A stretch of DNA of 64,000 bases from an uncultured Planctomycetales bacterium (GCA_964489065.1 CAZAXH010000003.1:127104-191103); one strand, 5' to 3'. Shown: positions 6,506 to 53,740, counted from the stretch's first letter. Numbers and translations are program-made. The notes: generated by a model not told the origin, from the sequence alone.

Positions 6506-7353
6506 TGAAAAATCCTTATCGCACACAATCTATTGCATTCTTTTTCCTGCTTTTAGCCACGTTGCTGATCGTGGTGCCGGTCGGGCTCGTTGTGGTCATT
6601 ATTGTTCAGAAAGGCTTGCCGGCCATCCATTGGACGTTTCTGTCCGACATCCCGCGGCAGGGCATGCGTGCGGGAGGCATTTTCCCGGCCATCGTCGGAA
6701 CGTTTTATTTGGTCAGCGGCGCCATTGTTTTTGCCCTGCCGATTGGTCTTTTGGCCGCGGTCTATTTGACGGAATATGCTAAAGACAATTTACTGACGAG
6801 GATCATCAAGCTGGCGATCGTGAACCTGGCCGGGGTCCCTTCGGTTGTTTACGGGTTGTTTGGTTTGGCGCTTTTTGTTGTGTTTTTTAAGCTCGGGGCC
6901 TCGATCCTTTCGGGCTCGTTGACGCTGGGGATTATGATTTTACCGATCATCATCACAACCTCGCGGGAAGCGCTTGAAAGCGTCCCGGCTTCGTTCCGGG
7001 AAGTGAGCCTGTCTCTGGGAGTCAGCAAGTGGCAGACGATCCGGCATATCGTTTTTCCAAATGCGATCCCCGGAATCTTGACAGGAACGATTTTGGGTTT
7101 GGGACGGGCCGCCGGGGAAACGGCGCCGATCCTTTTTACCGTCGCGGCCTTTTATCTGCCGCAACTCCCGGGTTCGATTTTTGACCAGGTCATGGCTTTG
7201 CCCTACCATTTATATGTTATCTCGACGCAGGTCCCGAATGTTGACGAAAAAATCCGTTACGGGACGGCGTTTGTTTTATTGGCGCTGGTCTTATTTATGA
7301 ATCTCATCGCGATCGTGATCCGTTCCAAATTCCGAAAGAAAAAGAAATGGTAA
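6502..7353 (+). CDS. pstA: Phosphate ABC transporter permease PstA
   Basis: Permease with EAA loop (SLGVSKWQTIRHIVFPNAIPGI); ATGA overlap with pstC. Confidence 0.85.
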   Translation: MMKNPYRTQSIAFFFLLLATLLIVVPVGLVVVIIVQKGLPAIHWTFLSDIPRQGMRAGGIFPAIVGTFYLVSGAIVFALPIGLLAAVYLTEYAKDNLLTRIIKLAIVNLAGVPSVVYGLFGLALFVVFFKLGASILSGSLTLGIMILPIIITTSREALESVPASFREVSLSLGVSKWQTIRHIVFPNAIPGILTGTILGLGRAAGETAPILFTVAAFYLPQLPGSIFDQVMALPYHLYVISTQVPNVDEKIRYGTAFVLLALVLFMNLIAIVIRSKFRKKKKW

Positions 7354-8093
7354 AATTTGATGTTAAGAATTTGAGCGTCCATTTCGGGCAGATTCAGGCT
7401 TTAAAGCAGGTTAGCTTGGCTATTCAGGCTAACGAGATTTTAAGCATTATCGGCCCTTCCAACAGCGGGAAGACGACTTTCTTGCGGATGTTGAATAGGC
7501 TCAATGAACTTCACGTACATTTTCGGATGGAGGGGGCGATACGAATCGGCGAGGAAGATATCTTGCGGATCGATGTGGAGCTGTTAAGAAAAAAGGTCGG
7601 GATGGTGTTTGCCTTGCCCCTGCCGTTGCCGTTTTCGGTGTATGATAATGTGGCTTACGGGGTGCGCATGCATGGCGAAAGGAATAAAAAGAAGGTCACC
7701 GAAAGAGTGCGCGTGGCTCTTCAGGAGGCGTACCTTTGGGAGGAAGTGAAAGACCGGCTGGAGGAATCCGCCTTTAAGTTGTCGGGCGGCCAGCAGCAAC
7801 GATTGTGCATCGCCCGGACATTAGCGGTGGAGCCGGAAGTGATTTTGTTTGACGAACCCTGTTCCGGGCTTGACCCTATTTCAACGGCCAAGGTTGAGGA
7901 CGCTATGCTTAAGCTTAAAACTCGGTACACGATTGTCCTGGTAACCAACAACGTAAAGCAGGCCGCCCGTGTGGGCGACCGGACCGCTTTTTTCTTGGGC
8001 GGGGAGTTGATCGAACTGGATGGGACAGAAAAAATATTTACGGCGCCCGGCGACCAGCGCACGGACGATTATATCCGGGGGAAATTCGGTTAA
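7347..8093 (+). CDS. pstB: Phosphate ABC transporter ATPase PstB, copy 1 (H-loop His replaced by Asn)
   Basis: Walker A GPSNSGKTT, signature LSGGQQQRL, Walker B ILFDEP. H-loop region reads VLVTNNVKQAARV where PstB normally has VTHNMQQAAR. Confidence 0.85.
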   Translation: MVKFDVKNLSVHFGQIQALKQVSLAIQANEILSIIGPSNSGKTTFLRMLNRLNELHVHFRMEGAIRIGEEDILRIDVELLRKKVGMVFALPLPLPFSVYDNVAYGVRMHGERNKKKVTERVRVALQEAYLWEEVKDRLEESAFKLSGGQQQRLCIARTLAVEPEVILFDEPCSGLDPISTAKVEDAMLKLKTRYTIVLVTNNVKQAARVGDRTAFFLGGELIELDGTEKIFTAPGDQRTDDYIRGKFG

Positions 8094-8848
8094 TGTCGGA
8101 AATTGTGGCGAAAAATTTGAATCTGTGGTACGGGTCGTTCCACGCACTCAAAGACGTTAACGCGTCATTCGGGGAAAAGCGCATCACGGCCATCATCGGC
8201 CCTTCGGGATGCGGTAAATCGACGCTTTTGAGGGTTTTTAACCGGATGAACGATTTTGTGGACGGGGTGCGTATGTCAGGAGAGGTGGTCATCGAAGGCA
8301 AGAATATTTTGAGCGGCCGCACGGACCTGGTGGCGCTGCGTAAAAAAGTCGGCATGGTTTTTCAGCGGCCCAACCCTTTTCCTCTGTCGGTGTATGAGAA
8401 TATCGTCTTCGGGGAAAGAATCCATGGCGGGCCATTGTCGAAGAATTTTTTGGATGCTATCGTAGAGAAAAGCTTAAAGAGCGTTTTGTTGTGGGAGGAG
8501 CTTAAAGACAGGCTGCGCGCATCGGCGTTGTCCCTGTCTCTCGAACAGAAACAGCGGTTGTGTGTGGCTCGTCTGATCGCGGTCAAGCCGGATGTTCTGC
8601 TTATGGATGAGCCCTGTTCGACCCTGGATCCGCAGGCGACCACTCGCATTGAAGAATTGATGAGGGAACTGAAAAGCGAATATTCGATCATTATCGTGAC
8701 GCACAACATGCAGCAGGCGGCTCGCGTTTCGGATGACACCGGGTTTATGTTGCTGGGAGAATTAATAGAGTTCGGGAAAACCACTGAAATTTTTACCGCG
8801 CCTCAAGACCGGCGCACGGAAGAATACATAACCGGACGGTATGGTTAA
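8093..8848 (+). CDS. pstB: Phosphate ABC transporter ATPase PstB, copy 2 (degenerate signature motif)
   Basis: Walker A GPSGCGKST, Walker B LLMDEP, canonical H-loop VTHNMQQAARV. Signature reads LSLEQKQRL instead of LSGGQQQRL. Confidence 0.85.
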   Translation: MSEIVAKNLNLWYGSFHALKDVNASFGEKRITAIIGPSGCGKSTLLRVFNRMNDFVDGVRMSGEVVIEGKNILSGRTDLVALRKKVGMVFQRPNPFPLSVYENIVFGERIHGGPLSKNFLDAIVEKSLKSVLLWEELKDRLRASALSLSLEQKQRLCVARLIAVKPDVLLMDEPCSTLDPQATTRIEELMRELKSEYSIIIVTHNMQQAARVSDDTGFMLLGELIEFGKTTEIFTAPQDRRTEEYITGRYG

Positions 8849-9538: not shown

Positions 9539-9574
9539 TTTTTAGAAATTTTATGGATACTCGTGATGTGTCAA

Positions 9575-9604
9575 AAAGCCCTTATGGAGAATAAGGGCTT
9601 TTTT
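9575..9604 (+). terminator. Rho-independent terminator after phoU (11-bp stem, 5-nt loop, T6)
   Basis: aaagcccttat/ataagggcttt inverted repeat 9575-9585/9591-9601, then tttttt; ends the pho operon. Confidence 0.75.
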
Positions 9605-9679
9605 GTCGGAGGCCATCCCGATGGGCCTCGTGAAAATATTGAATTGTGTGCAAGCCGGATTCAATGGTACAATCAACAA

Positions 9680-10501
9680 ATGCGGAAGCCCGAGATGGAT
9701 GCCGGAAAAAAATTAAGACGTCTTCGTTGTTTGCTGGCCCGGATGGACTCGGCGGTCGTGGCCTTCTCCGGAGGGGTCGACAGCACGTTTTTAGCGGCGG
9801 TGGCCGGGGAGACGCTTGGGAAAAAAGTGTTGGCTGTGACGGTTCTCACGCCGTTTGTGACCCGACAGGAGCAGCAGCGGGCAAAAGAGGCGGCACGGCA
9901 GTTGAAGTTAAAGCATGTTTTTAAACGCTTGCCCTTTCCCTCGGACATTTTGCGAAATCCCAGGAACCGCTGTTATCTTTGCAAGAAGCATATTTTTTCC
10001 TGTTTAGCGCGGCTGCGGGCTCAAGCAGGGTATGTCTGTTTGATAGAGGGCTCCCATCAGGATGATTTAAAGGAAGCGCGCCCCGGGAAAAAGGCGTTGA
10101 AGGAATTAAAGGTGCGTAGCCCTTTGGAGGAGGCGGGGTTGACGAAGGCGGATATCCGCCGGTTATCAAAGGCCCTGAGCCTTCCGACCTGGAATATCCC
10201 GTCCGCTCCTTGTTTGGCAACCCGGTTTCCTTTTGGACAGGCCATTGATTCGAAGCACTTGAAATATGTCACCCGGGCAGAATCTTTTTTGCAAAAATTA
10301 GGGCTTAGGTCCGTCCGCGTCCGGGTGCATGGTTCCGTGGCCCGGGTGGAAACGGACCCATGCCGGTTTTATGTTTTGCTGCGAAACCGTCTTGACATCG
10401 TCAGGCGTTTAAAAAGGCGGCCGGTGGCGTATGTTTGCTTTGATTTGGAAGGATATCGCAGCGGATCTATGAACGAGGAGTTGCCATGGAAAAATTTTTG
10501 A
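9680..10501 (+). CDS. larE: LarE-like PP-loop ATP pyrophosphatase (sulfur transferase of the nickel-pincer cofactor pathway)
   Basis: PP-loop SGGVDS, conserved PCLATR cysteine region plus an extra CxxC (RCYLCKKHIFSC). The ORF-track start at 9563 would span the phoU terminator, so Met 9680 (or 9695) is chosen; an extended -10 (TGGTACAAT, 9665-9673) sits just upstream. Confidence 0.7.
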   Translation: MRKPEMDAGKKLRRLRCLLARMDSAVVAFSGGVDSTFLAAVAGETLGKKVLAVTVLTPFVTRQEQQRAKEAARQLKLKHVFKRLPFPSDILRNPRNRCYLCKKHIFSCLARLRAQAGYVCLIEGSHQDDLKEARPGKKALKELKVRSPLEEAGLTKADIRRLSKALSLPTWNIPSAPCLATRFPFGQAIDSKHLKYVTRAESFLQKLGLRSVRVRVHGSVARVETDPCRFYVLLRNRLDIVRRLKRRPVAYVCFDLEGYRSGSMNEELPWKNF

Positions 10502-11229
10502 TAAAGGAAGTTTTAGAAGACGTGCAGGGCGGCCGGCTGTCCGTTGAGGCGGCGATGGATCGTTTGCGCGTCCTGCCGTATGAGGATCTCGGGTTTGCTA
10601 AGGTTGACCATCACCGGACGCTCCGGACGGGCTTCCCGGAGGTGATTTTGTGCCAGGGGAAGACGCCGGAGCAGATTGAGGAAATTTTTAAAACGCTGTC
10701 CGCGAAGAATAGACGGCTGTTGTTAACCAGGGCCGAGGAGCATGTCTATTCCAGGATTAAGGCGATTCATCCCCGGGCGCAGTATAACCGGCAGGCGAAG
10801 ATCGTCGTTATTGATGAAAAGCGTATTCCCGCGAAAGGACGGGTGAGCGTTGTTTGCGCCGGGACCGCAGATATTCCGGTGGCGGAGGAGGCGGCGGTTA
10901 CGGCGGAAATGATGGGCAGCCGTGTGGTGCGGGTTTACGACGTGGGTGTCGCCGGGATTCACCGCTTGCTAGAAAACCTTGAAGAGATAGCCGCCAGCCG
11001 TTGTGTCGTTGTGGTGGCGGGCATGGACGGGGTTCTGCCTTCGGTCATCGGAGGTCTGGTGCCGTGCCCGGTGATCGGCGTTCCGACGTCCGTAGGCTAT
11101 GGGGCGAATTTTAAAGGGGTCGCCCCGCTTTTAACGATGCTTAACAGCTGTGCGGCGGGTGTGACAGTCGTTAATATCGATAACGGGTTTGGCGCCGGTT
11201 TTGCCGCCGCCCGTATAAACAGGAGATGA
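10486..11229 (+). CDS. larB: LarB-like (PurE-like) pyridinium-3,5-biscarboxylic acid mononucleotide synthase
   Basis: N-terminal LarB-specific region (RTGFPEVILCQGKT) plus PurE/AIR-carboxylase-like fold (SVVCAGTADIPVAEE...VVVAGMDGVLPSVIGG). Confidence 0.75.
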   Translation: MEKFLIKEVLEDVQGGRLSVEAAMDRLRVLPYEDLGFAKVDHHRTLRTGFPEVILCQGKTPEQIEEIFKTLSAKNRRLLLTRAEEHVYSRIKAIHPRAQYNRQAKIVVIDEKRIPAKGRVSVVCAGTADIPVAEEAAVTAEMMGSRVVRVYDVGVAGIHRLLENLEEIAASRCVVVVAGMDGVLPSVIGGLVPCPVIGVPTSVGYGANFKGVAPLLTMLNSCAAGVTVVNIDNGFGAGFAAARINRR

Positions 11230-11230
11230 C

Positions 11231-11569
11231 ATGGATTCTCAAAAACCTTTGTGTGCCCGGTGTGCCGGGGCGGAAAAATTTACCCGGCTACTGTCCGGCC
11301 GGCCGGTGACCGCCGGAATGAAATCCGGGTATGTGACGTTGCCGCCGGGCGAGGCCGTGGGCGAACATGTGACCAGCGGCCGGGAAGAGGCGATTTTGAT
11401 CTTGGAGGGGCGGGCGGATATTTTTTGTGGCGGTAAAAACATTTTTTCTGCTGATGCGGTGAGCCTGGTGTATATCCCGCCGGAAACCCTTCATAATATC
11501 CGGAACGCCGGCCCGGGCCGGCTTTGTTATGTTTACGTCGTCAGCCCGGTTGTGGCTTCGCCGGACTGA
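11231..11569 (+). CDS. Cupin-domain protein
   Basis: 112 aa with cupin-2 beta-barrel motifs (GEHVTSGREEAILILEG...LHNIRNAG). Confidence 0.6.
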   Translation: MDSQKPLCARCAGAEKFTRLLSGRPVTAGMKSGYVTLPPGEAVGEHVTSGREEAILILEGRADIFCGGKNIFSADAVSLVYIPPETLHNIRNAGPGRLCYVYVVSPVVASPD

Positions 11570-11583
11570 CAGGGAGGAACCCC

Positions 11584-12468
11584 ATGAATTCGGCCTTTCA
11601 TTGGATTTATTTTTTTTTGAAAGTGGGCTGGCTGTTGGCGGCGGGAAAAAAAGTGCCGGCCAGCACGATTACGGATGATTATAATGAACTCGCCAGGATG
11701 TATGATGAATTTTTTTCCGTGTATATGGCTCCCCACGCCAGGCACCTGGCGCAAAAGCTGCCCCTCTCTTCCGGGGGGGCGCTGAACGCTCTGGACCTCG
11801 CTTGCGGAACAGGAACTTTGACACAGGCCTTAAGCGAACGCCTTGCGGCAGCCGGCGTCTTGACCGCGGTGGACCTTTCAGAAAAAATGATGGAACAGGC
11901 CAAAAAGAAGCTGACCCGGCCGGTGATATTCCGGGTGGAGGACATGATGCGTTTTCTCCTTCAGCAGACAGCGTCGTCTTACGACGCTGTGACCTGCGGC
12001 TGGGCGATCGGGTACTCCCGCCCGCAGTCTCTGATCAAAGAAATGCATCGGGTTTTGACGCCGGGGGGCGCGGTCGGCATTATAGAGAACCGGCAAAACA
12101 CGCTTTTCGAAATCCGGGAAACCGCCATGAAGGTTATGATGCGTTATCCGCAGCATATCCGCCGGACGATGGATTTGACGTTTCGCCTGCCCAGGGATAA
12201 AGATCATTTAAGTCTCTGGTTTCGTAAGGCGGGGCTGAAAGTCAAGGAGATATGGGACGGACAGATAGAGTTTTGTTTCAAGAACGGGGTGGACGTGTTA
12301 AACTGGGTTCTGCACACCGGGGCTAGCGCCGGGTTTGACCGCGTGATGGACCCGGACGCCAAATATGTGTGTGACCTGGCTTTTATTCAGATTATAGAAA
12401 AAGATTATAGGCGTGACGGCCAAATTAAAACAGCGCACCGCTTTGTCGCCGGAGTGGCTCAAAAATGA
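11584..12468 (+). CDS. Class I SAM-dependent methyltransferase
   Basis: Motif I LDLACGTGTLT; GGAGG RBS before Met 11584 (the ORF-track start at 11524 overlaps the cupin gene). Confidence 0.75.
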   Translation: MNSAFHWIYFFLKVGWLLAAGKKVPASTITDDYNELARMYDEFFSVYMAPHARHLAQKLPLSSGGALNALDLACGTGTLTQALSERLAAAGVLTAVDLSEKMMEQAKKKLTRPVIFRVEDMMRFLLQQTASSYDAVTCGWAIGYSRPQSLIKEMHRVLTPGGAVGIIENRQNTLFEIRETAMKVMMRYPQHIRRTMDLTFRLPRDKDHLSLWFRKAGLKVKEIWDGQIEFCFKNGVDVLNWVLHTGASAGFDRVMDPDAKYVCDLAFIQIIEKDYRRDGQIKTAHRFVAGVAQK

Positions 12469-13682
12469 AACAGCTGACTGGGCTGCAGAGAGATAGCGTT
12501 TTGTTTTTTCACGGCCGGACTCCCGAATTCCGCCGGCTGCCGTTTTCCGTGCAGTGGGCGATCCACCGTACCCTGAGAAACGAAAAGATCACGGCCCTGA
12601 ACGGGGATTATGTGATCAATTCTTTTTTTCCCCCGCTGCGTTCCGCTGCTTACCGGGAGATGGTTAAAAGTACGATCGCGATCTATCAGAAAAAACCATA
12701 CCCGTATTCGGCGTATTGCGCGGTGACCAGCCGGTGCGGATATCATTGTTGGCATTGCAGCAGAACAAAACGGGCGGAAGAAGAGCTGGATACGTCCGCA
12801 TGGCAGAAGATCGTCGGGCGTCTGCAGGAGGCCGGGGTTAGTATGATCGGGTTCACCGGCGGGGAGCCTTTATACAGGGCGGATCTGGAGGATATCCTCC
12901 AGGTGATCTGCAAGGACCGGTCCGCCAGCATCCTGTTTACGAGCGGAGAGGGGCTGACCCGGGAGCGGTTGGCTTCTTTGCGGGACGCGGGGCTTGATTA
13001 TGTGGCGGTCAGCCTGGATCATTATGAGCCGTTGCCGCATAATCAAATGCGCGGTCATCCGGATGCTTTTACAACGGCGCTGGAGGCGATTGGGGTGTGT
13101 TTAACGGCCGGGGTTTATACGGCTGTTCAGGTGATGGTCCGCCGGGAGCTGCTGGTTAGAAATCAGATGGAGCGGTTTGTCTCTTTTGTCCGGGACCTGG
13201 GCGTGCCGGAGATCCGGATCATTGAGCCGATGCCTACGGGAGAACTGTTTTGGGGGAGGGACGATGTGCTTCTGGATAACCCAATGCGGGCGGGCCTGAA
13301 AAAATTGCATAGGGCGGTCAACCAGAGACCCTCTGGTCCCAAAGTCGCGGCGTTCGCTTATATTGAAGACGGGCAACAATACGGATGCGGGGCGGGGATA
13401 CAGCATATGTATATCGACGCCTCCGGGAATCTGTGCCCGTGCGATTTTACCCCGCTGTCTTTCGGCCATATCCCCACGGAAGGTTTTGACGTCTCCTTTG
13501 GGCGGCTGCGGGCGGCGTTTGCTCGCCCGGCGCGGCAATGTTTTCTTTTGCGTCATCAGGAGGCTCTCCGGGAACATTATAAAGGGCAGCTGCCTTTATC
13601 TTACCCGGACAGCCTGCAGATTTGCCATAGCTGTCCTGCCGGGCCGGTTCCGGATTTTTACCGTCATTTGGGATGGACGTAA
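12465..13682 (+). CDS. Radical SAM enzyme with C-terminal SPASM/twitch domain (possible peptide or cofactor maturase)
   Basis: CGYHCWHC (CX3CX2C) radical-SAM motif after a roughly 95-aa N-terminal extension; GGEP motif; seven C-terminal Cys including a CPC and a CHSC pair; ATGA overlap with the methyltransferase stop. Confidence 0.8.
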   Translation: MKQLTGLQRDSVLFFHGRTPEFRRLPFSVQWAIHRTLRNEKITALNGDYVINSFFPPLRSAAYREMVKSTIAIYQKKPYPYSAYCAVTSRCGYHCWHCSRTKRAEEELDTSAWQKIVGRLQEAGVSMIGFTGGEPLYRADLEDILQVICKDRSASILFTSGEGLTRERLASLRDAGLDYVAVSLDHYEPLPHNQMRGHPDAFTTALEAIGVCLTAGVYTAVQVMVRRELLVRNQMERFVSFVRDLGVPEIRIIEPMPTGELFWGRDDVLLDNPMRAGLKKLHRAVNQRPSGPKVAAFAYIEDGQQYGCGAGIQHMYIDASGNLCPCDFTPLSFGHIPTEGFDVSFGRLRAAFARPARQCFLLRHQEALREHYKGQLPLSYPDSLQICHSCPAGPVPDFYRHLGWT

Positions 13683-13701
13683 TTTTGGAATGGGGTAAGT
13701 T

Positions 13702-14115
13702 ATGACTTTGGAACGGGTAAAATATATTTTTTTGACAGTCAGCGTTCTGTGCGCGGGGGCGCTGAGTTGCCTCTTTATCTTGATGGGGGTTCGGATGGCT
13801 CTTGCGGGCGGACTGTTTTCTCCTCCGGTGGCGCTGCCTCTGTTTTGGTGGGGAGAGTGGGGAGTCTGCTGGGGTGGGTTTTGCGGGTGGCTGTGGGGTA
13901 AAAAACTTTTTCGCGCGTTGGGCCGGGATTCCTGTCTGGACGCAGGGATGAGGTATGGGCTTTACGCTGGTTTGATGATTGGGACTGTTAATGCCGCGTT
14001 AACCGGGACTTTGCCGTTTGGTTTTGTTTTGGGTATTTTTTTGGGCCCGGCCTTTGGCGTTCTTATGACTGTTTTCGGGAAAAAGATGCTCGCCCGAATT
14101 TCAAGGAGCATTTAG
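13702..14115 (+). CDS. Small Trp/Gly-rich integral membrane protein
   Basis: 137 aa, about 4 hydrophobic segments; unusual WWGEWGVCWGGFCGWLWGKK segment. Confidence 0.5.
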   Translation: MTLERVKYIFLTVSVLCAGALSCLFILMGVRMALAGGLFSPPVALPLFWWGEWGVCWGGFCGWLWGKKLFRALGRDSCLDAGMRYGLYAGLMIGTVNAALTGTLPFGFVLGIFLGPAFGVLMTVFGKKMLARISRSI

Positions 14116-14237
14116 TTTACACGACCAAAGGGAGTGTAAACTAAAAATGCGAATTGATCCTTCAGCGCGAGAGAGCTAAAGCGAACGAGCCGAAGGATGG
14201 TGGTTTAATACCCCGTAGCTTGCTCTGGAGGCTATCC
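14107..14237 (+). repeat. Intergenic structured repeat family R1, copy A (contains a 12-bp perfect stem tttagtttacac/gtgtaaactaaa)
   Basis: Near-identical to copy B over about 110 nt (14107-14215 vs 14338-14447); related copy at 47077-47199. Confidence 0.8.
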
Positions 14238-14337
14238 TTTGATTGTTATGTGGTTGAGGCGCCGGATTGTTTACGGAAAAGACTAAAAGTATGCTTCTGG
14301 GTTGTGTTGTGATATAATCAAAATCCAAATTATTTAA

Positions 14338-14497
14338 TGAGCATTGATTTTACACGCCCCAAGGGAGTGTAAACTAAAAATGCGAATTGATCCTTCAGCG
14401 CGAGAGAGCTAAAGCGAACGAGCCGAAGGATGGTGGTTTAATACCTCGCAGCTTGCTTTGGTTCATTAAATTTAGAGTTTGCTCCGGGGTTTATGCC
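14338..14497 (+). repeat. R1 repeat copy B, with a 3' extension carrying two small CTTG/TTTG-loop hairpins and a GGGGTTTAT tail
   Basis: Direct repeat of copy A; its 3' part matches copy C (ggttcatt...agcttgct...ggggtttat); about 35 nt upstream of glnS. Confidence 0.8.
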
Positions 14498-52060: not shown

Positions 52061-53740
52061 ATGATACGTGTGGCGTTGGCGCAGATTAATGCCATGGTGG
52101 GGAGCTTGGAAGGGAACCGGAGGAAAATTTTGCAGTTTATCCTCCGGGCCCGGGAACTGTCCGCGGATTTGATTGTTTTTCCTGAATTGGCGGTTTGCGG
52201 TTACCCTCCGGAAGACCTTTTGTTCAAGGATCATTTTATCCAGGATAACCTGAAGACGCTGAAGGCGTTAAGCCGGGAGATCACCGGGATCACCGCGATC
52301 CTGGGGTTTGTTGACCGGGGTAAAAAAAGAAATATTTTTAACGCGGCAGCCGTGATTCAGGATCATAAAATATGCGGGATTTATCATAAGCAGGAGCTCC
52401 CGAATTACGGCGTGTTTGATGAAAAACGTTATTTTACCCCTGGCACGGGAACCTTGAGCTTCCGGTTGAATGGCGTGGTTTTCGGGCTTAGTATTTGCGA
52501 AGACATCTGGCGGCACGGTCCGCTTTTAGAAGCGCAGATCAAGCAAAAGTTGCCGCTGATCGTGAACCTTTCGGCATCCCCGTATGATTATGACAAGCTA
52601 CAACGGCGGGAGAAACGGTTGAAGGATTGCGCCCGGCAGACGCACGCGTATGTTTGTTACACAAACCTTGTCGGCGGCCAGGATGAACTGGTTTTTGACG
52701 GGGGTAGCCTGGTCATTAATCCGCAGGGCCGCGTGCTTGCTAACGGAAAACAATTTGAGGAGGATTTGGTTGTTCTGGACCTGCCTCTGGCCTCTTCGGG
52801 GCAGAAATACCGGGCGCCGCGGGGATGCATTAATCTTGGGGATAAGACACAAACATTAAAATGCGCCTTGCCTCCTCATAAGGAAGAGCGGTTTTCCCGG
52901 ATGGAGCGCGTTTATCGGGCCCTGGTCTTAGGGACGCGGGATTATGTCCATAAAAACGGGTTTGAAAAAGTCGTCATAGGGTTAAGCGGCGGGATTGATT
53001 CGTCCGTGGTGGCGGCCCTGGCCGCGGATGCGGTTGGCCATGAGAATGTGGTCGGCATTTCCATGCCGTCGAAATATACTTCGGAAGGAACCCAAAGAGA
53101 CGCCCGGGTCCTGGCGCAAAATTTAAGAATCAGGTTTAAGGAAATCCCCATTGACCGTATTTTTCAGACCTATTTGGATGAGCTTGCTCCGGAATTTTCC
53201 GGGTTGCCGTTTGACGTGGCCGAGGAAAATCTCCAGGCCAGGATCAGGGGCAATATCCTGATGAAGTTTTCCAATAAATTTGGCTGGCTGGTTTTAAATA
53301 CCGGGAATAAAAGTGAGGTTGCGGTGGGGTATTGCACGCTTTATGGTGATTTGGCGGGTGGCTTTGCGGTGATCAAGGATATTCCTAAAATACAGGTTTT
53401 TCAACTGGCCAGGTTTATTAACGAAAGACAGCCGGTGATCCCGGATAGTGTTTTGGAGCGGGCGCCGTCCGCGGAATTGCGTTATAATCAAACGGACCAG
53501 GATTCTTTGCCTCCGTATCCTGATTTAGATCCTCTTCTGAAGGGGTATGTGGAAGAACACCTGTCCATAACTCAATTGCAGAAGATGGGCCTGGATAAGA
53601 GTAAAGTCAGGGAAATTATTCTGAAGGTTGATCGGAGCGAATATAAACGCCGGCAATCGCCGCCTGGAATAAAAATTTCGACACGGGCGTTCGGAAAAGA
53701 CTGGCGGTTGCCGATCACGAACGGCTACCGGGAGGATTAA
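52061..53740 (+). CDS. nadE: Glutamine-dependent NAD+ synthetase (N-terminal CN-hydrolase plus C-terminal NadE)
   Basis: 559 aa; nitrilase-like N-domain (IRVALAQINA...ICED) and PP-loop GLSGGIDSS. Confidence 0.85.
   Translation: MIRVALAQINAMVGSLEGNRRKILQFILRARELSADLIVFPELAVCGYPPEDLLFKDHFIQDNLKTLKALSREITGITAILGFVDRGKKRNIFNAAAVIQDHKICGIYHKQELPNYGVFDEKRYFTPGTGTLSFRLNGVVFGLSICEDIWRHGPLLEAQIKQKLPLIVNLSASPYDYDKLQRREKRLKDCARQTHAYVCYTNLVGGQDELVFDGGSLVINPQGRVLANGKQFEEDLVVLDLPLASSGQKYRAPRGCINLGDKTQTLKCALPPHKEERFSRMERVYRALVLGTRDYVHKNGFEKVVIGLSGGIDSSVVAALAADAVGHENVVGISMPSKYTSEGTQRDARVLAQNLRIRFKEIPIDRIFQTYLDELAPEFSGLPFDVAEENLQARIRGNILMKFSNKFGWLVLNTGNKSEVAVGYCTLYGDLAGGFAVIKDIPKIQVFQLARFINERQPVIPDSVLERAPSAELRYNQTDQDSLPPYPDLDPLLKGYVEEHLSITQLQKMGLDKSKVREIILKVDRSEYKRRQSPPGIKISTRAFGKDWRLPITNGYRED

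Follow-up and report, generated by a model that had tools for sequence, protein, structure and literature searches.

Do six closely packed genes on one strand make up one pathway? This question is raised by a 4.4-kb gene cluster (positions 9680-14115) within a stretch of bacterial DNA of 64,000 nucleotides (GCA_964489065.1, CAZAXH010000003.1:127104-191103), which as a whole is referred to below as the window. The cluster begins with genes for LarE and LarB, two enzymes of nickel-pincer nucleotide biosynthesis, and continues with genes for a cupin, a class I S-adenosylmethionine (SAM)-dependent methyltransferase, a radical SAM enzyme and a small membrane protein. A first-pass annotation of the sequence had regarded all six as one lar-like cluster without larC and larA, in which the later genes would divert the lar intermediates to a different product. 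The underlying observation holds, in that all six open reading frames (ORFs) are real, closely packed and located on the plus strand. We consider it likely, however, that the 4.4-kb stretch consists of two functionally independent modules, which are neighbours in one lineage of Omnitrophota. The first module (9680-11569) would comprise LarE, LarB and the cupin; the second (11584-14115) would comprise the methyltransferase, the radical SAM enzyme and the membrane protein, and would be a self-contained tailoring unit of bacteria and archaea. The six genes are as follows:

9680-10501, plus strand: LarE (TIGR00268)
10486-11229, plus strand: LarB (NF033503)
11231-11569, plus strand: cupin, 112 aa (Pfam Cupin_2)
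11584-12468, plus strand: class I SAM methyltransferase, 294 aa (Pfam Methyltransf_25/11)
12465-13682, plus strand: radical SAM enzyme, 405 aa (Pfam Radical_SAM)
13702-14115, plus strand: integral membrane protein, 137 aa, Gly- and Trp-rich (no Pfam or NCBIfam family matched)

The LarE and LarB ORFs overlap by 16 nt, LarB and the cupin are 1 nt apart, the cupin and the methyltransferase are separated by 14 nt, and the methyltransferase and radical SAM ORFs are joined via an ATGA overlap.

Neighbourhoods of the methyltransferase and radical SAM genes

A scan of 185,579 species genomes, one per species, yielded 403 confirmed stretches in which a relative of the radical SAM enzyme is encoded. The best 80 of these 403, which correspond to 75 non-redundant loci, were searched with the six window proteins and served for all neighbourhood counts; in the protein homologue searches, the best 120 matches were taken. 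The protein search returned radical SAM homologues from many phyla that span the full length of the protein. The best 80 stretches come from bacteria assigned to Omnitrophota, Kiritimatiellia, Lentisphaerota, Verrucomicrobiota, Thermotogaceae, Spirochaetota, Elusimicrobiota and many Clostridia, as well as from Patescibacteria (including Minisyncoccus archaeiphilus), Nanobdellota, Thermoplasmatales and one Asgard archaeon. In 66 of the 75 loci, the radical SAM gene adjoins that of a methyltransferase homologue, mostly located immediately upstream, and clustering of the neighbouring ORFs identified this methyltransferase as the sole widely conserved partner, often duplicated as paralogues of ~190 and ~290 aa.

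The lar genes follow a different distribution. Among the 75 loci, LarE, LarB and the cupin are restricted to those with a radical SAM enzyme at least 74% identical to that of the window, and no LarB, LarE or LarC was found within 10 kb of the methyltransferase/radical SAM pair in the ~70 loci outside the window's clade. For LarC, we built a profile from 26 LarC sequences found beside LarB in other loci (control recovery, 26 of 26); it gave no match in any locus of the radical SAM relatives. The reciprocal comparison agrees, as no homologue of the methyltransferase or the radical SAM enzyme was detected in 80 other LarB loci from metagenomes (52-63% identity).

An informative case is provided by a related locus, L088, on a 3.36-Mb contig, with a LarB 73% identical to that of the window. 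It has the gene order gltX, LarE, LarB, cupin, glnS, flavin reductase, response regulator and cation efflux protein, and agrees on both sides with the window and with another relative, L006; the methyltransferase, radical SAM and membrane protein genes are missing. In L006, all six genes are present and ~500 bp lie between the cupin and the methyltransferase. Because L088 is syntenic on both sides without the three genes and because L006 keeps them at a distance from the cupin, the three genes between cupin and glnS are, on the comparison of these loci, present or absent as a block.

These data bear directly on the model of one six-gene pathway, according to which P2CMN or P2TMN (the pyridinium biscarboxylate and bisthiocarboxylate mononucleotides made by LarB and LarE) would be turned by the methyltransferase and the radical SAM enzyme into a new cofactor or metabolite. 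The shared strand, the tight spacing, including the 14-nt gap between cupin and methyltransferase, and the lack of a clear terminator speak for it, as does a six-gene order that is kept down to 74% radical SAM identity despite a changed upstream context. The pair is nevertheless found in ~70 other loci from many phyla without lar genes nearby, it is absent from L088 and from all 80 of the other LarB loci, and the six-gene arrangement is limited to one narrow clade. The neighbourhood data therefore largely refute a single six-gene pathway, which we regard as very improbable, and the proposal that the last three genes extend or divert the lar pathway is not sustained. It should be noted that same-strand tight spacing is insufficient for inferring a shared pathway. 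The annotation had named, as an outcome that would speak against it, that the cupin, methyltransferase and radical SAM genes belong to a separately conserved operon: this proved to be so for the methyltransferase and the radical SAM enzyme, which are conserved independently, but not for the cupin, which stays with lar.

In another Omnitrophota genome (L009, the same as L001), an AbiEii toxin gene and a DUF6088 gene are located at 12769-14028, ~1.5 kb downstream of the pair; because of these neighbours, there is a hint that the pair is located in variable, accessory-gene territory.

LarE, LarB and the cupin

The identities of the first two proteins were borne out by family models and by alignment to the solved Lactiplantibacillus plantarum proteins; the family-model check, a failure of which would have contradicted the annotation, was passed by both. 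LarE scores 277.7 bits against the equivalog TIGR00268 (cut-off 150), with residues 11-265 of 273 covered, and matches the L. plantarum LarE at 1e-37 in a near end-to-end alignment. LarB scores 302.1 bits against the equivalog NF033503 (cut-off 175) and aligns almost over its full length (residues 7-246) to the solved structures 8SOQ/7MJ0, with E of 5e-71. In LarE, the PP-loop reads SGGVDS, and the sulfur-donor-site motif is present: there is a CYLC motif, and the Cys of a PC motif lies one residue past the position of L. plantarum Cys176. The CXXC-C pattern together with SGGXDS is characteristic of the Thermotoga maritima type of LarE, which has a [4Fe-4S] cluster (PMC9283937). The window LarE shares with that enzyme the SGGXDS PP-loop, the CXXC and the third Cys shifted by one relative to Cys176, and is probably of the catalytic, [4Fe-4S] type; it should be kept in mind that the cluster type of the window LarE, in distinction from that of T. 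maritima, is assigned from sequence only.

Since the family biochemistry is established and the matches are at equivalog level, the following two steps are proposed. LarB, as a C5-carboxylase/hydrolase acting on nicotinic acid adenine dinucleotide (NaAD), would carboxylate NaAD and release AMP, yielding P2CMN; LarE, as an ATP-dependent sulfur transferase, would convert P2CMN to the dithiocarboxylate P2TMN, probably catalytically via its [4Fe-4S] cluster. A glutamine-dependent NAD+ synthetase (CN_hydrolase and NAD_synthase domains), which consumes NaAD, also the substrate of LarB, is encoded at 52061-53740 of the window.

In L. plantarum, the lar genes are linked to the Lar(MN)QO nickel uptake system. 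The window LarB and LarE are clear orthologues of the proteins of that operon, and nickel uptake is linked in the window's relatives as well. The differences are that larC and larA are missing from the 64 kb, that the third gene encodes a small cupin, which in some organisms is fused to LarB, and that the L. plantarum LarE is of the sacrificial Cys176 type whereas the window LarE has the CXXC-C cluster pattern. We conclude that the lar part of the cluster represents the known system in a new form, LarE-LarB with a cupin as the third gene.

What, then, inserts nickel? The absence of LarC and LarA from the flanks, as first reported, was upheld throughout the 64-kb window, which is part of a 348-kb contig. 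The LarC profile found nothing at E <= 10 in its six-frame translation, all 20 ORFs of at least 370 aa outside the cluster have Pfam identities other than LarC or LarA, and no LarA homologue (PF09861) was met. The profile was also negative in the loci of six relatives (L006-L008, L087-L089), and the gene tables of two more (L170, L172) list no member of the LarC family. However, among ordinary LarB loci with flanks of at least 3 kb upstream and downstream, just 10 of 23 had LarC in the locus; because more than half of such loci show no linkage between LarC and LarB, the absence of LarC from the flanks says little.

We take the KEGG Orthology (KO) entries K06864, K06898, K09121 and K22373 to stand for larE, larB, larC and larA, respectively. 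In the examined part of the KO table of PMC10066038, both of the Omnitrophota genomes that are listed in full have K06864, K06898 and K09121; the same two genomes also hold NikR and CbiM and have no K22373, an entry with no occurrence in the examined part of the Omnitrophota table. Since these two listed genomes combine larB, larE and larC without larA, the LarC of the window genome is probably encoded elsewhere in that genome and would most likely be the enzyme that inserts nickel. The finished cofactor would then serve a protein other than LarA. This situation agrees with a known class: ~15% of the genomes surveyed contain larB, larC and larE without larA (PMC11796402). The search for proteins that use or handle the pincer cofactor is active, with new users reported in 2025 and 2026; within the larA-less class, they were found via adjacency to lar genes (PMC13524815). 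The aldo-keto reductase NphT is one such user (PMC13524815), and an ornithine cyclodeaminase dependent on nickel-pincer adenine dinucleotide is another, as cited there (Desguin 2025, in PMC13524815). Four metagenome loci encode, in the vicinity of LarB and LarC, a family of ~423-aa proteins, for example at 3362-4636 of L094. By eye, these proteins resemble the LOR/SDH type of ornithine cyclodeaminase, recently tied to nickel-pincer adenine dinucleotide.

The cupin matches the Pfam family PF07883 with 36.5 bits (cut-off 27.2; E 4e-9), which places it in the superfamily. Its AlphaFold2 model is all-beta (predicted local distance difference test score, pLDDT, 87.7) and resembles monocupins of the TM1287/TM1459 type. 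His46, Thr48, Glu52, Glu53, His88 and Asn92 are invariant, and Thr48 replaces the second His of cupin motif 1. These residues correspond to a predicted metal site of two His and one carboxylate (His/Glu/His) in a monocupin barrel. Position 31 is Lys in the window and Lys, Arg or His across more distant members, and no conserved Lys that could tether a cofactor covalently was found among the aligned relatives.

The gene context of the cupin is consistent. LarE-LarB-cupin is present in nine of the nine Omnitrophota loci examined; the loci with the triad are the window with its near-identical copies L004, L005 and L007, followed by L006, L008, L087, L088, L089, L170 and L172. LarB and cupin are fused in two proteins, P0203 (385 aa) and P0290 (363 aa), which are 54% identical to each other, and at least 13 of 44 cupin orthologues are on contigs equal in size to those with LarB matches. 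In L089 and L170, the triad is preceded by genes for NikR, an OprB porin and a CbiMNQO-type transporter, and L170 has two additional HypA genes upstream. A nickel enzyme also figures in the context of a 38%-identical cupin, whose gene comes after that of a [NiFe]-hydrogenase large subunit. No cupin homologue was found in the 80 other LarB loci, and our literature search on LarB combined with a cupin returned nothing relevant. On these comparisons, the cupin is evidently a lineage-specific partner of LarB and the conserved third gene in Omnitrophota; the conserved triad, the fusions and the adjoining nickel uptake genes bear out the initial suggestion of a metal-related role. The protein may handle nickel or an intermediate of the pincer pathway; one such task would be to donate or hold the metal. 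At L170 3339-6589, genes for [FeFe]-hydrogenase-like subunits and the two HypA proteins are inserted within the CbiMN...QO nickel transporter operon that precedes the triad.

It is doubtful, although worth stating in its two more definite versions, that the Omnitrophota cupin is an unrecognised nickel-pincer component: it could donate or insert nickel, alongside LarC or in its place, or be a minimal scaffold that binds and uses the cofactor. One has the cupin replace LarC, as a nickel insertase or a sufficient nickel-delivering partner in Omnitrophota that lack LarC. The slot after LarB that it occupies is the slot of LarC in the E-B-C and B-C arrangements found elsewhere (14 of 80 loci), none of the nine triads has LarC within 10 kb, a His/Glu/His metal site is predicted, and NikR and nickel transporter genes adjoin the triad in addition to the LarB-cupin fusions. 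On the other hand, the two listed Omnitrophota genomes (PMC10066038) have K09121 together with larB and larE, LarC is so often unlinked in ordinary LarB loci, and the chemistry of LarC is a cyclometallation dependent on cytidine triphosphate, for which a cupin of 110 aa has no obvious means. We regard this substitution as quite unlikely.

In the other version, which is also unlikely but deserves somewhat more credence, the cupin would fill the vacant place of a cofactor user, as a new, very small scaffold that binds the nickel pincer in Omnitrophota without LarA, in the manner of NphT and ornithine cyclodeaminase. The listed Omnitrophota genomes do have larB, larC and larE and no larA, earlier users were discovered through lar adjacency (PMC13524815), the cupin is the sole protein consistently linked to LarB in Omnitrophota, and its conserved His could ligate nickel. 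The likeness to the larA-less larBCE genomes of that study (NphT and others, PMC13524815) lies in lar biosynthesis without larA and in a non-LarA protein that is conserved alongside; the differences are that the window neighbour is a 110-aa cupin, neither a TIM barrel nor a cyclodeaminase, that it has no His/Lys tether motif, and that its link to the cofactor is one of gene context. Further points against a user role are the variable position 31, which leaves no invariant Lys for tethering, the unusual fusion of a user enzyme to an early biosynthetic enzyme that it would imply, the lack of conserved substrate-related genes beside the triad, and the related, 38%-identical cupin beside the hydrogenase gene, which is on a 9.4-kb contig without lar genes. 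Be that as it may, a cupin that is conserved after LarB, is fused to it in certain organisms and is encoded in nickel uptake operons controlled by NikR offers, from an uncultured phylum, a concrete candidate that can be put to the test.

The radical SAM enzyme, its partners and their substrate

The radical SAM enzyme belongs to its superfamily with 68.6 bits against PF04055 (cut-off 29.5), and the cupin, class I methyltransferase and Radical_SAM assignments of the annotation all pass the Pfam thresholds. Its CX3CX2C motif (C91/C95/C98) is invariant in 77 sequences. The annotation had also described a SPASM domain with seven C-terminal Cys. The CX3CX2C motif stands, but the C-terminal part has six Cys (308, 324, 326, 359, 387, 390), its match to SPASM (PF13186) is sub-threshold at 19.8 bits (cut-off 21.5), so that the subgroup is not reached, and the canonical CX2CX5CX3C block is absent; a SPASM domain would be expected to have two auxiliary clusters and a seven-Cys motif. 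Across the 77 family members, only C308, C326, C359 and C387 are conserved, which suggests one auxiliary cluster. Because many homologues carry a precomputed SPASM match, we read the C-terminal region from its sequence as SPASM-related but reduced.

The predicted model (pLDDT 91) is closest in fold to SkfB, anSME, BlsE, SuiB, PqqE and MoaA, with ~280 of 405 residues matched. Searches against solved structures, by sequence and by fold, returned only generic neighbours, SPASM/twitch enzymes for the radical SAM enzyme and monocupins for the cupin. None of the named equivalogs searched (PqqE, NirJ, AhbD, MoaA, SkfB and others) was reached, the best being PqqE with 94 bits against a cut-off of 381; homologues scored 122-132 bits against NirJ2/AhbD (cut-off 500), and the Clostridium and Minisyncoccus homologues likewise reached no curated family. 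From the SPASM/twitch enzymes (SkfB, anSME, PqqE, BlsE, AhbD/NirJ), the window family differs by equivalog scores far under the cut-offs, by four conserved C-terminal Cys without the CX2CX5CX3C block, and by an N-terminal domain of its own together with an obligate class I methyltransferase partner. These sequence characters identify it as an uncharacterised family within the SPASM/twitch enzymes.

The methyltransferase is of the BioC/UbiE-like type and has a conserved basic, hydrophobic N-terminal helix. Against BioC (TIGR02072; cut-off 184.95), it scores 62.9 bits and its Clostridium homologue 81.7 bits, so that neither is BioC by this measure. The BioC/BioH system, in which a carboxyl group is O-methylated and the methyl ester is later removed by an esterase, offers an analogy: the alignment to BioC is near full-length, and in several lineages the radical SAM gene is followed by, or fused to, a gene for an alpha/beta hydrolase of the BioH/MenH type. 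The unit differs in its non-biotin context, in the presence of a radical SAM enzyme and in methyltransferase scores (63-82 bits) that are far under 185.

The membrane protein, for which no Pfam or NCBIfam family was matched, has 3-4 predicted helices and a conserved WG.xWG..CG motif, and its homologues adjoin the pair in L006-L013. As a universal third component it was rejected, since an iterated profile finds only L006-L013 and one short Elusimicrobiota fragment; by this distribution, it is taken to belong to the module, as its third gene, in the Omnitrophota clade only. In other lineages, unrelated families of small integral membrane proteins, with no Pfam family, are tightly coupled downstream of the pair. 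In several lineages, it is the alpha/beta hydrolase that adjoins the pair instead, and in P0058 it is fused to the radical SAM enzyme. In Kiritimatiellae, a lysophospholipid transporter-acyltransferase-acyl-ACP (acyl carrier protein) synthetase fusion and PlsY are encoded downstream.

The proposed course of the reaction is as follows. The radical SAM enzyme would generate a 5'-deoxyadenosyl radical at the cluster bound by C91/C95/C98 and would use one auxiliary cluster, and the BioC-like methyltransferase would methylate the substrate of the radical SAM enzyme. For that substrate, our best guess would be a lipid or small molecule associated with the membrane rather than a nicotinate-derived scaffold. 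Judged from the neighbouring genes and from the N-terminal helix of the methyltransferase, this is a possible answer, although we would sooner bet against it than for it; the chief alternative is that the pair modifies RNA or protein. Among the curated families, solved structures and papers searched, none names a substrate for the pair, and nothing relevant was found in the literature on the pair in Patescibacteria.

Two known systems were considered and rejected. Since Sarcina, Thermotogaceae and Clostridia carry the pair, membership of the family of membrane-spanning lipid synthases came into question; the paper on the published enzyme (Tmari_0825) names no methyltransferase partner. A search for known anti-phage defence with PADLOC gave generic core matches only (pVip with 39 bits, and the mad2 methyltransferase domain).

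The annotation had also raised the possibility that the 95-aa N-terminal extension of the radical SAM protein is a recognition element (RRE) of ribosomally synthesized and post-translationally modified peptides (RiPPs). In its full form, the methyltransferase and the radical SAM enzyme would be a RiPP maturation pair, acting through an N-terminal RRE on the Trp-rich downstream protein or on an unannotated short peptide. The nearest solved structures do include the maturases SkfB, SuiB, CteB and PqqE, there are weak NCBIfam matches to peptide maturases, including WgkB, and a CPBP-type protease adjoins the pair in two loci. However, no short ORF conserved beside the pair across lineages was found, and the membrane protein family, restricted to Omnitrophota and of a membrane type with 3-4 helices, is not precursor-like; neither candidate supports a RiPP-like substrate. 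The family-specific N-terminal domain (~85 aa) is modelled as a short strand, three helices and a hairpin followed by a helix, in contrast to the three strands and then three helices of an RRE. In this structure-based test, the topology was taken from the whole-protein model, with no separate fold search for the N-terminal domain by itself. Conservation within the domain is confined to the hairpin and the following PPFPS loop, and the first ~35 residues are variable or missing. The pair is also present in Patescibacteria with small genomes and in DPANN archaea. Given these results, the domain does not read as an RRE, and a RiPP pair is highly improbable.

Several points weigh against the two-module reading as a whole. 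The modules on the cupin side and on the methyltransferase side are probably co-transcribed in the window, because the gap between them is 14 nt and no convincing terminator was seen in the sequence of this junction; since they are probably co-transcribed, the lar pathway may have co-opted the methyltransferase/radical SAM pair in the window lineage. The presence of LarC in the source genome itself, which we consider probable, is argued from other Omnitrophota genomes. The role assigned to the cupin comes solely from gene context, and its fold matches generic monocupins only. The idea of a lipid or membrane substrate, finally, is a guess from heterogeneous neighbours and weak similarities.

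Two functionally independent modules nevertheless describe the loci best. The methyltransferase/radical SAM pair is of interest beyond the window. It is an uncharacterised two-enzyme unit that occurs in hundreds of species, among them Patescibacteria with small genomes as well as DPANN and Asgard archaea, and the identity of its substrate would annotate a recurrent module of microbial dark matter.

Signals and surroundings of the cluster

The upstream boundary of the cluster is marked by one further feature, read directly from the sequence:

9574-9605, plus strand: terminator-like hairpin, AAAAAGCCCTTAT-GGAGA-ATAAGGGCTTTTTT

This hairpin is near-perfect, of the intrinsic-terminator type, and located between phoU and larE, where it closes the upstream pst-phoU operon. 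A longer larE ORF could start at GTG 9563, and the hairpin would then fall within the frame; because of this strong terminator-like structure, ATG 9680 is the preferred start and GTG 9563 is unlikely. The larE leader from the hairpin to ATG 9680 is ~75 nt, it contains no Shine-Dalgarno sequence, and a TACAAT box ends 7 nt before the ATG. Because of the position of this box and the lack of a Shine-Dalgarno sequence, larE may be translated from a leaderless mRNA or one with a very short leader. The methyltransferase ATG, by comparison, is preceded at a distance of 8 nt by a ribosome-binding site, GGGAGG. No riboswitch or other known RNA was found across the locus.

The operon directly upstream of larE has the order pstSCA-B-B-phoU, with two neighbouring genes for PstB-like ABC ATPases (7347-8093 and 8093-8848). 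On the other side, the intergenic region between the membrane protein gene and glnS contains two copies of a ~129-nt element (14100-14228 and 14333-14461), which are 93% identical and 233 nt apart. Both copies start with a hairpin, GTTTACAC...GTGTAAAC, and the folding z-score of copy 1 is -4.75. The window has no third copy, no Rfam family matches the element, and a 20-mer from the core of the element is absent in all relatives' loci compared, including a relative with 96% identity.

Nearly all genuine-looking ORFs of at least 180 aa in the window (1-64000) are on the plus strand, and the GC skew is positive in all of its 2-kb bins, which fits one leading-strand replichore. The GC content at 10-14 kb is 55-56%, compared to 49-50% in the immediate flanks.

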